DNA of 64,000 bases from Syntrophales bacterium. GTDB lineage: Bacteria > Desulfobacterota > Syntrophia > Syntrophales > UBA2210. Made by a program: the position numbers and the translations under genes. The stretch lies in NCBI GenBank assembly GCA_963666365.2, contig CAXXNF010000002.1:1056001-1120000 (forward strand), in the 5' to 3' direction. The notes under the pieces were generated by a model, which was given only the letters and a program-made list of their open reading frames with translations, was not told where the DNA came from and did no database searches. Positions 13,881 through 17,721 of this stretch are shown one piece after another; the stretch's first letter is position 1; every line of letters starts with the position of its first letter.

Positions 13881-15198
13881 GGCGCTCGAGTCAATTGATT
13901 TTTCATTGTCTTACTCCCTTGCTTTTTCGTTTCCCGCTGTTTCACGCCGGGCACGTGTTATGAAACTGCGGCCTTCCGGAAAAGGTTCATGAAAGGGAAC
14001 CTCCGCTTTTCTCCGGTCGCTCGGCGCATCAGACGATAAACTTTCTGTTCTGTTGCTCGGAATAAACCCGTGCCGGGGGCATTTGTCTCCGCACGCCGGG
14101 CGTGTGGGCCTATTGTGCAATTATTTCAAAAAGAACCCGCATGTTCGCCTTTGCTTCCTTTGAGTATATGTTCTCCGGAATGGGCTCATACATGGCCGGC
14201 CGCTTCTCGCCATATCCGACTCTGGTCAGTTGTTTTGCCGGACTCAGTCCTTCATTTGCGAGGTAGTCATAGACAGCCTTTGCTCGTCTTTCGCTCAACT
14301 TCTGGTTGTATTCTTCAGTGCCTTTAGCAGAGGTATATCCGGCTATACGGATTGTGGCTTTTGGGTTGTCTTCCAGAAGCTGGATCCTCCTTTTCAGTTT
14401 CGCCTGCGCTTCTTTTGTAAGGGTGGACTTATCGAAATCAAAATGTACGTCCTCAAACGCAAGGACAACTATCTTTCTTTCAGCCGGCGACTCATCCGCA
14501 ATGGTCTTTACCATCTCTTCGACCTTCGGTTCGGTCATGGGGACAAGGACTATTGCCTTTTCTTCAACTTTGGCACCAGATTTAGGTTCATACTTTATGC
14601 CCTGGGCCTTTGCTGGCTTTGCCTTGCCGCCGAACGAAAAGACGATTCCGAAGGTAGCTACAAGATTGTGGAAGGTCTCATCAAAAACCATATTATCCCT
14701 GAGATCCAGTCTTAAGCCGAAATTGTCGGTCAACCAGTATTTCGCGCCTACGCCAAAACTAACAAACGCCATGTCATGGTCGTTTATCTTCGGATCATAG
14801 TGGGCGAATCCATAACCGGCAGCAACGAAGGGGTTAAATTTTTTCTCGGGCATAAAGTGATAGAGAAGATCGAGATGATAAAAGGTAATATCAAATACAG
14901 GATTAGTCCCGAGTCGAGGAACGAGCGCTCGGAACTAATCCATGGTTCAAGAAGCCGCGGGCTATAGGGGAAAAGGTTCGATAATCCTGGGATGGTTTTG
15001 AAGATTGAATCAGGTAAAAGACCGGAAGAAGATCTTTGAAAACATGGTCAATCGAAAGTAAAGGGATTCATCGTCATGAGAAATCCTGATTAAAAGGGTT
15101 AAAAGCCTGCCTTTGGGCAGACGGGTGCTATAGAGCATTCCCTAGTATAGATCATCTCTCGTGGCCTGAAAAAAATCATTGTCTTGCAGATATATTTT

Positions 15199-16293
15199 CT
15201 ATCCCGAAGGACCCCATCGGGGCATAGGACTTACAAAGGCAATAAACCTTAACGCCTGTCCACAGCAGGGACATTTAATCCCTTCCCCTTTATGTTCGGG
15301 TGTGTTGGGTAAGAGATCACGGATGACATCGTGGATTAATGAAATGAGTTCACGCAGCTGTTCGATTGAGAAGGAACTGTTTGAATTGAGAAAGCCGTAG
15401 TATCGTATTTTCATAAGCCCTTTCGGCAGGACATGCTGAAGAAATCTTCGGATAAACTCCACGGCATCAAGCTTCATGGTTTTCCATGTCTTCTTCCGAC
15501 GATCTTTATATCGAAATGTAATGACGCCGTTTTCAATATTTTTAATGCGGTTATTAGAGATGGCGACGCGGAAGACATACCGTGAAAGGTAGCGCAGAGA
15601 GTTTTGCCCCGTTCCCACGGCCTGACTATCGACAACCCATTGTTGCGTCCAGAGGTCGGGATGAATGGTATCAAAGAGTCTGGCCTTTTTCATTGCATCC
15701 CGGAACTTGGCCCGAAAGATGATTGCCAGGGGTTGTGTGTGCACAAAGAGATCTTGTCTTGAGGATACCCATTGATCTCCTTTTTCGGATACTGCGCCGC
15801 CCGGAATAACCAGATGGAGATGAGGGTGATACTGAAGCATGTTTCCCCAGGTATGGAGCACGGCCAGATAACCGATTCGTGTTGAGCCGACAAACCGCTT
15901 GTCTTTCGCTAATTTCCTTAGCGCTGCATGAGCGCATGAGAACATGGCCGCATAAACGATCTTTTGATGGGATCTGGCAACTTCCCGAAGGCCTTGCGGC
16001 AGCGTTATGGTTAAGAGGAAATAATGGGTGGGCAAAAGCTGTTCCATCTGTTTGTGAAGCCATTGATCCCTTTTATCATGCTGACAGTTCGGACAGTGGC
16101 GATTCCCGCAGCAACAGGGAATGGAGTGTATGGCGCCACAGTCATGACAGCCATACACAATCGTTCCGAAAGAACCACTGCGGCAATCAGTGATATCCTG
16201 CATGGCTTTTTTATGAATGTGCGGCATTCGGTCGCCATGCAGCGCCAGATAGTGCGGCCCATATATCTGGAAGATTTTTTGAATAGCGCTCAT
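15199..16293 (-). CDS. IS91-family (Y2) rolling-circle transposase
   Basis: Zn-binding CHDCG...CCGNRHCPNC, HUH motif HPHLH, YLSRY Y2 motif, FIRRFLQHVLP and IRYYGFL. Confidence 0.93.
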   Translation of the reverse strand: MSAIQKIFQIYGPHYLALHGDRMPHIHKKAMQDITDCRSGSFGTIVYGCHDCGAIHSIPCCCGNRHCPNCQHDKRDQWLHKQMEQLLPTHYFLLTITLPQGLREVARSHQKIVYAAMFSCAHAALRKLAKDKRFVGSTRIGYLAVLHTWGNMLQYHPHLHLVIPGGAVSEKGDQWVSSRQDLFVHTQPLAIIFRAKFRDAMKKARLFDTIHPDLWTQQWVVDSQAVGTGQNSLRYLSRYVFRVAISNNRIKNIENGVITFRYKDRRKKTWKTMKLDAVEFIRRFLQHVLPKGLMKIRYYGFLNSNSSFSIEQLRELISLIHDVIRDLLPNTPEHKGEGIKCPCCGQALRFIAFVSPMPRWGPSG

Positions 16294-17165
16294 GACAACA
16301 CCCCCTGCATCACCTGTGAGACCCTAGTATGGGAATCGGTTTGGGCCTGAGTGGTCACATGCAGATACACCATGGTGCTTTGCAACGTTTTGTGGCCCAA
16401 TATTTTTTGGACATGCCGTATGGGGATATTGGCTTCCAGCAGGTGCGTTGCATAGGCATTGCGAAAGACATGGGGATGAATATGTTTTTTAAACCCCAGA
16501 CGCTTCAATGTGCGTTGCAGAACCCCTTGGACGCCGCTGTCGCTGACATGTGCATTTGCAAATTGAGCATCTTTGCCTCCGTTGTGACCCAGGGCGGGAA
16601 AGATCCATTTTGGATTGCGGTGGCTTTTATAGTACTCACGTAAAGCCAAGAGGGTGATTTTCGGTAAGGGGACTGTCCGATCCAGTGCCCCTTTCCCCGC
16701 ATGGATGTGAACCAGACCCCGATCGGAGAGAATGTCCCCGACTTGCAGCGTCGTTGCTTCCCTGAGACGAAGTCCCAGGGAATATAAGGTCAGGTAAAAG
16801 GTATGACTCTGTAACGTGGGAAGGGCATAAATGATCTTTCTCACTTCCTGAAGGCTTAAGATAGTGGGAAGCGTCTGGTCACGCTTCCACTTGATTTCAT
16901 TGAAAATGTTCCAGGACCGGACAAGCGTCCTGGTGAAAAAATGCTGGATTCCGGCGTAACTGATTCGTAACGATGCAGCGCTCCAGCCGAATTCACTTTG
17001 GCAACAAAGCCAATATTGACGCAGTTCCTCTTCGGTGATATCTTCTAGCGGCTTGTTGTAAAAGCGTTGCAAGCGCAATACGGAACTTACATACGACTGA
17101 ATACTTCTTTTTGCATAACCGGCTAACTGGAGATCCTCCTTGAAACGTTTGATCACATGGCTCAT
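16290..17165 (-). CDS. Tyrosine recombinase with N-terminal SAM-like domain
   Basis: Catalytic residues R (GLRLRE), K (GKG), HxxR (HVFR), H (LGH) and Y (TMVYLH); AAGGAAG RBS before MSHVIKRF. Confidence 0.93.
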   Translation of the reverse strand: MSHVIKRFKEDLQLAGYAKRSIQSYVSSVLRLQRFYNKPLEDITEEELRQYWLCCQSEFGWSAASLRISYAGIQHFFTRTLVRSWNIFNEIKWKRDQTLPTILSLQEVRKIIYALPTLQSHTFYLTLYSLGLRLREATTLQVGDILSDRGLVHIHAGKGALDRTVPLPKITLLALREYYKSHRNPKWIFPALGHNGGKDAQFANAHVSDSGVQGVLQRTLKRLGFKKHIHPHVFRNAYATHLLEANIPIRHVQKILGHKTLQSTMVYLHVTTQAQTDSHTRVSQVMQGVLS

Positions 17166-17721
17166 GGTATCTTCCTTTCTTCTTTTAACCTTGTCGGGTA
17201 GAAGATACCGACCTGCAAGCCGGTATGAAGATACCATGACTTATTTGATCAAACAATGATGGTTGAAAATCATTAATCTGCCGCGTAGCGGCTTACTTGA
17301 ACCACATCATCAATGGGACTTGTGAACTGCCCTTCTTTGGTCCACGGTATTGCGGTGTTATCGACACTTGTTTTGATATGTTCTCCAACGACTTCAATCC
17401 CGAGATTGCGGGTAAAATTATAGCCAAACCGTCCGCCGAATATGAAATCGTCTTCCAGATTCTGGTCGCGTTCGAAGAAATTGTATCCCGCGAACGGGCT
17501 CACCTCAAAGCTTCCTGCTCTTATCTGTGAGTGGGCAGGCAAGGGCAGGAGCAAAGTAAGGGCGAACAACACCATTGCTGTTTTTATAACAGGGATCATT
17601 AAAAAATTTTTTTTCATCTGAAATCTCCTTTTTCATAATAACTGTACCTTCACTCCTATATTGTGACCTTCCCCCGTGCTTAGCAGGGGAAGGTCGCCTT
17701 TTGAACCGCATAGTGCATTCT

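Follow-up and report, generated by a model that had tools for sequence, protein, structure and literature searches.

An ompA-like gene of a Syntrophales bacterium (assembly GCA_963666365.2, contig CAXXNF010000002.1, positions 1,056,001 to 1,120,000 of the forward strand; these 64,000 nucleotides are referred to as the window) is split by a 2410-bp insertion sequence of the IS91 family, which carries a tyrosine recombinase gene in addition to that of its Y2/HUH transposase. The locus raises the question of which of the two enzymes inserts the element and by what route; the role of the IS91-borne tyrosine recombinase is unexplained in the literature searched. The ends of the element, when joined, fold into a covarying look-alike of an integron attC site, the crossover falls at AAC/GTT, and relatives land at the R'' box of attC hairpins; together these features make it directly testable whether the HUH enzyme supplies single-stranded DNA that the IntI-like enzyme integrates. 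IS91-family elements with an upstream 'phage integrase' gene are catalogued in ISfinder, and these integrase-bearing members, like the subgroup of Smyshlyaev et al., have the same two-gene layout as the element. The recombinase-transposase pair is therefore already known, whereas the end structure, the fold of the joint and the target rule appear to be undescribed: no account of them was found in the literature searched, a search which did not extend to ISfinder, TnPedia and most subscription papers. Coordinates are window positions unless prefixed G000 (the genome carrying the window), the gene strand is the minus strand, and counts across relatives are not counts of independent events.

Extent of the element and fold of its joined ends

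With the 2410 nt taken out, the two ompA-like parts share one frame, and the joined flanks show no gap at the joint when aligned with two uninterrupted homologues from a genome of the same order (G057; L016 with 80% and L013 with 72% identity). In a contig of sequencing run X20, which stems from a relative and differs in 11 of 76 letters, exactly 2410 nt are missing, corresponding to 14892-17301 within an ambiguity of 1 nt (runs were compared as contigs, not reads; joint reads and strands are not visible in contigs). As both alignments are gapless or of exact length, the insertion occurred without target-site duplication, and the claim of an earlier note on this DNA that removal of the element restores ompA is borne out. 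The ends proposed in that note, 14895 and 17304, are 2 nt off. The second copy in the genome (G000:C2:2178160-2180569), the interior of which is 100% identical to the window copy except for one tail position, parts from it at the last two bases so defined (CCA versus CAA), and all three uninterrupted homologues read TCCAC where the empty site of the earlier note gives TCAAC; the element is therefore assigned to 14893-17302. With these ends both copies finish in ...CTTGAAC and the differences fall in the flanks, which have no repeat in common beyond the target triplet; the empty site reads ...GTG^GAT... on the minus strand. Two other readings of the termini were ruled out, namely cleavage after CTTG three bases further in (as suggested by the alignment with IS91 terIS), by which a conserved Asp of the G057 homologues would become Val, and a 3-bp target duplication of GTT, since the 5' GTT is also found at a GAT target and covaries with the internal copy of the repeat.

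The ends were joined by script and folded with DNA parameters, with z-scores derived from dinucleotide shuffles. The resulting fold has a predicted energy of -26.1 kcal/mol on the + strand and -27.8 kcal/mol on the gene strand, versus an average of about -12 for the shuffles (z of -6.2 and -7.7, respectively). Its outer stem, 7+7 bp around a single bulged base, is formed from 17288-17302 and 14945-14958; the joint is located between this stem and the unpaired 7-nt tail, while a 3-nt spacer is found on the other side of the inner hairpin, whose 14-bp stem contains one C.A mismatch on the + strand that becomes a G.T pair on the gene strand. The attC-like hairpin described in the earlier note is thus real, although two bases of the flanks had wrongly been counted into its stem. 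The same joint fold is predicted in ten of ten diverse elements, whose transposases are 33-46% identical to that of the window, and in a second family of the genome, with z among the relatives ranging from -2.2 to -9.7.

A layout of terminus plus repeat was found by script in 49 of 98 loci; many of the others are cut by contig ends, and a few spurious matches were dropped by rule. Regarding the first 8 bp of the inner stem, 35 distinct stems were present in 39 elements, and 237 of 280 cells (85%) were paired, with four to five pair types per position, whereas sliding the partner by one or two columns reduced pairing to 35-49%. The outer stem (7 bp) came in 13 distinct versions, with pairing in 85 of 91 cells, versus 20-47% with the partner slid. 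The conservation and covariation of the joint hairpin among homologues, which the earlier note had suggested looking for, are therefore found in this material. In 40 elements the tail measures 5-8 nt (mode 6), the spacer 0-6 nt, the stem 8-31 bp and the loop 3-18 nt. The ends are the only conserved non-coding features of the element.

A contig of 2580 nt (L043, G368:C118) has a terminal overlap of 134 nt and closes to a circle of 2446 nt, which corresponds to one element with its tail joined to its terminus as predicted; either a free circle or an array of tandem copies would yield such a contig, which is an indirect hint at rolling-circle transposition through a single-stranded circle. At another locus (L089, 3100-3220) two different elements adjoin each other, tail to terminus, so that the terminus itself served as target, and in L136 (3380-3506) the hairpin end is partially repeated in tandem, the repeat beginning at a GTT within the hairpin. 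The sole internal difference between the two copies of the genome, at 14898, consists of C in the window copy and T in the second copy, with A in two old remnants. It lies within the unpaired + strand tail; as a speculation from a single case, the C/T change could stem from deamination of a single-stranded intermediate. The features are listed in Table 1.

Table 1. Features of the insertion sequence and of the interrupted gene (window positions).
Feature	Position	Strand	Basis or remark
Insertion sequence, 2410 bp	14893..17302 (1-nt ambiguity: 14892-17301)	-	Extent of second copy, gapless empty-site alignments, ends of relatives
ompA-like gene, downstream (C-terminal) part with OmpA domain	14110..14892	-	PF00691, 4.4e-23
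Target triplet beside hairpin end	14890..14892		ATC on + strand = GAT on gene strand; off-consensus
Unpaired 7-nt tail between joint and inner hairpin	14893..14899	+	Fold of joined ends
Inner hairpin, oriIS-like end	14900..14941		Fold; arms 14900-14913 and 14928-14941, 14-nt loop
Subterminal inverted-repeat copy, GTTCAAG + AAGCCGC	14945..14958		Fold; pairs with other terminus after joining
IS91-family Y2/HUH transposase, 364 aa	15199..16293	-	NF033538, 366.8 bits (cut-off 125)
Tyrosine recombinase, 291 aa from ATG at 17165	16290..17165	-	PF00589, PF13495
Small palindrome, 5-bp arms and 3-nt loop, terIS-like end	17280..17292		Layout like left ends of IS91 and an IS1294-like element
Terminal inverted repeat ending ...CTTGAAC	17288..17302		Last triplet AAC = preferred target triplet
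ompA-like gene, upstream (N-terminal) part: signal peptide and start of beta-barrel	17303..17617	-	PF13505, 1.9e-5 (below its cut-off)

Target triplets and attC hairpins

The earlier note had placed the insertion at G^TT. This holds as a preference of the family and fails for the window copy: the hairpin end is flanked by GTT (AAC on the + strand) at six of the seven sites in the genome, the exception being the ompA copy with GAT. Among relatives with GTT as terminal triplet, 28 of 30 have GTT as the first bases of the flank, 5-10 nt after the hairpin, and one of the two misses is, judged by eye, a folding artefact. Among 11 elements with other terminal triplets the flank has the same triplet in three (ATA, ATT and CTT); a fourth match, CAT in L146, is a reading by eye only. 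The triplet at the upstream end belongs to the element and that at the downstream end to the target, because the upstream triplet is GTT in spite of a GAT target and covaries with the internal copy of the repeat. GTT is the preferred flank of the family. As element and target both end in C, a cut at AAC^ by the HUH enzyme (5' link) and one at AA^C by the recombinase (3' link) are indistinguishable.

The seven hairpin-end sites of the genome comprise the window copy, the second copy and five remnants of 29-175 nt, which keep the hairpin end only and are each flanked by AAC (G000:C2:432637, 433209, 1677950, 1835974 and 2229260). Two of the remnants share their orientation and are separated by 570 bp; the shortest two end in or just past a GAAC of the hairpin loop, perhaps as traces of cuts at a second GAAC. 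The empty site in ompA has no hairpin (fold of only -8.4 kcal/mol). In the right flank of the second copy (G000:C2:2180570-2180640) an isolated, imperfect hairpin of 60 nt (-23.7 kcal/mol) begins 3 nt past the insertion point, and CATCAA is present 6-11 nt beyond the joint in both insertion sites of the genome.

For attC sites, the available source passages give RYYYAAC as the inverse core and GTTRRRY as the core site, in which crossover takes place between bases 1 and 2. In relatives, the 7-mer that runs up to the insertion point fits the inverse core in 15 of 28 loci, versus an expectation of 1 in 16, two of the 15 being the terminus of another element. Of the 21 loci whose flank is 45 nt or longer, five (L086, L024, L128, L105 and L100) have a clear attC-like hairpin starting at the insertion point; its first box, which ends there, is paired with a GTT box located 58-95 nt further on, and the energies are -17.6 to -28.2 kcal/mol. 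An open reading frame on the same strand ends 44, 33 and 1 nt before the box in L024, L086 and L105, respectively, an arrangement known from gene cassettes; L128 and L100 are not informative. In L024, L086 and L105 the insertion point is accordingly read, from sequence and predicted fold, as the R'' box of a cassette attC. A shift of the recombination point to the R'' box is described for top-strand attC recombination in the accessible part of PMC2727003.

The two genes and the route of insertion

The transposase has a zinc-binding N-terminus and matches PF04986 (7.8e-58) and PF14319 (4.3e-25); its HUH histidines H158 and H160 and the tyrosines Y235 and Y239 do not vary among all 15 transposases compared. 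The recombinase gene lies upstream, its stop overlaps the transposase start (ATGA), and the two are translationally coupled. R133, K158, R235, H258 and Y267 of the recombinase are invariant in 27 of 27 sequences, and H232 is present in at least 90%. All 27 match the XerA, IntI, XerC and XerD models, with best E-values of 1e-67, 1e-66, 2e-55 and 1e-53, respectively, and all remain below the cut-offs; the window recombinase obtains 138 bits against the IntI model TIGR02249 (cut-off 265). The top matches among solved structures are an archaeal XerA-type protein and IntI4. The recombinase is classed on these sequence and structure matches as IntI/XerA-like with an intact catalytic set, an outcome in favour of the interpretation given in the earlier note. 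In the passages of the Smyshlyaev et al. preprint that were available, IS91-borne recombinases are placed in an integron-like subgroup and noted to be without the IntI insertion; the remark on IS91 is absent from the available passages of the published version. A predicted complex of recombinase and transposase obtained a score of 0.00, which counts as evidence neither way.

Relatives of the transposase at E <= 1e-30 are present in 48 of 401 genomes sampled from the phylum, and a recombinase homologue lies directly upstream in 30 of the 33 genome loci fetched. A profile scan of metagenomes yielded 80 loci, 74 of which have the recombinase upstream on the same strand; of the six others, four have less than 310 nt upstream (a contig scan with a single protein as query yielded three loci only). 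L081 and L106, which do have upstream room, are doubtful cases of members without a recombinase. The pair is near-universal in the clade, and the element is an IS91-family insertion sequence from a clade that carries its own tyrosine recombinase. The second recombinase-plus-IS91 family of the genome consists of two copies that are 99% alike (G000:C2:438262-440780 and C2:1855358-1857875), with the same end layout, other hairpin letters and flanks ending in AAC; its second copy has a 108-nt tandem duplicate of the hairpin end. In runs X17, X19 and X20 (and X1) contigs join 14892-14957, i.e. about 65 nt of the hairpin end, to 17277-17302, the last 26 nt, at a depth of 161-358 versus about 7-10 for the interior of the element. 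These contigs look like a short non-autonomous derivative, which is not in the G000 assembly (two right ends only).

A two-enzyme route, with the transposase producing a single-stranded circle for integration by the recombinase, is favoured, tentatively and with slightly less than even confidence, because it would explain the retention of a catalytic recombinase, the attC-like layout that canonical IS91 lacks, the consensus of the boxes and the targeting of R''. By analogy with IS91, the Y2/HUH transposase would nick the + strand at the oriIS-like end, right after the flanking triplet; rolling-circle replication would peel off the strand, which would be cut after the terminal ...GAAC and closed into a single-stranded circle. 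The joined ends in the circle are predicted to adopt the covarying attC-like fold (outer 7+7-bp stem, unpaired spacer at the joint, inner hairpin and variable loop), and the IntI/XerA-like recombinase would exchange one strand, the AAC of the fold with the AAC (GTT) of the target, before replication completes the process. The best targets would be the first box of attC hairpins; in ompA a degenerate ATC would have been used, leaving a poor flank and no hairpin partner. Several observations weigh against this route. The transposase keeps its HUH motif and both tyrosines, and in the ends the motif of terminal cleavage is the same as that of the target, as is the rule in IS91; IS91 TnpA alone inserts a single-stranded circle without duplication, the bottom-strand circle being the functional intermediate (available passages of PMC13181058). 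The boxes of the window element, CTTGAAC and GTTCAAG, fit the integron consensus at AAC/GTT only, and the unpaired bases of the inner stem have no preferred arm (5' arm in 11, 3' arm in 13 and equal in 16 of 40 elements). The recombinase is without the IntI-specific insertion, its structure alignment to IntI4 (2a3v) being split with 10 residues against 43, where residues 177-188 face residues 179-222 of the IntI4 chain. The genome contains no integron integrase above the cut-off, and no attC-like site was found in a strict home-made scan of six regions around copies and remnants, which is crude and does not show absence.

It is possible, if somewhat doubtful, that the transposase acts alone as in IS91, the Y2 enzyme nicking oriIS, terminating at terIS and inserting the circle at AAC^. 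The inner hairpin and the repeats would then be recognition elements, the recombinase would be an accessory for end recognition or regulation in the place of Orf121, and attC hairpins would be targeted as mimics of the element's own joint; the subterminal GTT could pair with the AAC to be cut, guide-like as in IS200/IS605. The equivalog match of the transposase (NF033538) with its invariant catalytic residues, the joint behaviour of terminal triplet, inner-repeat complement and flank triplet (GTT in 28 of 30, others in three of 11) and insertions at hairpin-free sites such as ompA all speak for this, as do the terIS layout shared with IS91 and the IS1294-like element and, in the same passages of PMC13181058, the position of Orf121 upstream of TnpA with overlapping stop and start. 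The transposase acting alone gives no reason why a catalytically intact recombinase, to which Orf121 is unrelated, is kept across the clade; the end layout departs from canonical IS91, and the precise preference of relatives for R'' at attC hairpins of diverse sequence fits a structure-reading, IntI-like enzyme. A later role for the recombinase, after insertion by the transposase, is considered unlikely: it would act on flanking hybrid hairpins or head-to-tail multimers and thereby excise circles, comparable to the excision of a cassette, or resolve tandems left by rolling-circle read-through. Insertion into attC leaves, as deduced, two attC-like hybrid sites in direct order, and the circular contig L043, the abutting elements of L089 and the partial tandem hairpin-end copies of L136 and of the second family would suit such a role, but no excision product of the strain was seen among the contigs, the sole contig that skips the element comes from the relative in X20, and copies at non-hairpin sites such as ompA would gain nothing. 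Least probable by far is that the joint hairpin is a by-product of terminal inverted repeats and a transcription terminator without any role in recombination. Inverted repeats are common in transposons and the inner hairpin does lie downstream of the transposase gene, yet in 40 elements its distance is a fixed 5-8 nt to the end and 0-6 nt to the repeat, no T run follows it, the short derivatives in the sequencing runs keep just the hairpin end and the other terminus, and covariation reaches the outer stem.

Since the end logic of IS91 is also found in this element, the inserting enzyme cannot be told from sequence alone. The contention of the earlier note that the route is integron-like rather than IS91-like is accordingly not shown, given a transposase that is a full IS91 equivalog, ends built on the IS91 logic and a crossover that is not placeable to the nucleotide. 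If the two-enzyme route is true, it links rolling-circle insertion sequences with integrons, bears on the origin of attC recombination and defines a further class of invaders of cassette arrays. A bolder and improbable extension would regard the clade as cassette-like transposons, the circle being made by the HUH enzyme and its joint being a true attC analogue that the IntI-like enzyme recombines with another hairpin's AAC or a degenerate one, with ancestry shared with integron cassette recombination; such shared ancestry, if true, would provide a concrete model for the origin of attC sites and of single-strand recombination by IntI. Should the transposase alone suffice, a distinct end architecture and target rule within IS91 would still be left.

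Comparison with known systems

The ends of IS91 and of an IS1294-like element were read on E. coli plasmids. In IS91, according to the available passages of PMC13181058, terIS lies upstream of orf121-tnpA with one palindrome adjoining the cleavage motif, and oriIS lies downstream, adjoining the target tetranucleotide. Like canonical members of the family (IS91, IS801, IS1294 and IS1294b), the element has a Y2/HUH transposase with an N-terminal zinc domain and makes no target duplication. Its terIS-like end (17280-17302: 5-bp palindrome, 3 nt, CTTGAAC) has the layout of IS91 and the IS1294-like element; its downstream end likewise contains a palindrome or palindromes and abuts a short conserved target that resembles the terminal motif. 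The stop of the upstream gene overlaps the transposase start in both, this gene being Orf121 in IS91 and the 291-aa recombinase in the element. The candidate explanation of Orf121 as a remnant of the recombinase was rejected (hhalign probability 0.05); Orf121 matches no Pfam family over the cut-off. In contrast to IS91, the motif of the transferred strand is NAAC in the clade and not the canonical target tetranucleotide GTTC or CTTG, and the flank on the gene strand is GTTN versus GAAC or CAAG. Whereas the downstream repeat of IS91 is terminal with no hairpin outside, that of the clade is subterminal, with a hairpin of 13-31 bp and a tail of 5-8 nt outside. The element thus has most of the defining features of IS91, lacks the canonical tetranucleotide and has a distinct downstream end.

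Folded attC strands have R and L boxes, an unpaired central spacer, extrahelical bases and a variable terminal structure (accessible part of PMC2727003). The joint of the element resembles them in its order of box, spacer, inner stem, loop, spacer and box, with the joint at the inner edge of the outer box; as in integron attC sites, the crossover is at or beside the AAC/GTT of the outer box, and the outer boxes are whole in the circle only. The terminal 7-mer (GTTGAAC or GTTGGAC) fits the core and its inner copy the inverse core in 25 of 40 relatives; only two 7-mers lie behind these 25, which therefore represent few independent events. Unlike in attC, the bulged bases are on no consistent side in the clade, and unlike the use of R' in integrons, the insertion point in relatives is the R'' box. 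The recombinase matches the models of IntI and XerA equally well, but unlike IntI it has no IntI-specific domain, and its gene is located inside an insertion sequence and coupled to the transposase. The element, which unlike integrons carries its own HUH transposase, includes no attI, Pc promoter or cassette array.

IS1111-attC elements and group IIC-attC introns, as well as an IS91-like element adjoining an attC, are mentioned in the available passages of PMC9229058. As with these attC parasites, relatives of the element are found at one fixed position of attC, although the enzymes differ and the window copy, unlike the parasites, is not in an attC. Two further systems act on folded single strands. 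The IS200/IS605 elements (Y1 HUH) have subterminal hairpins that are read on single-stranded DNA and a short target motif matched to the element end; their transposase class and geometry are different from those of the element. In Xer-dependent phage integration a Xer-type recombinase uses a folded single strand and exchanges one strand; there the Xer recombinase is that of the host, whereas the element carries its own.

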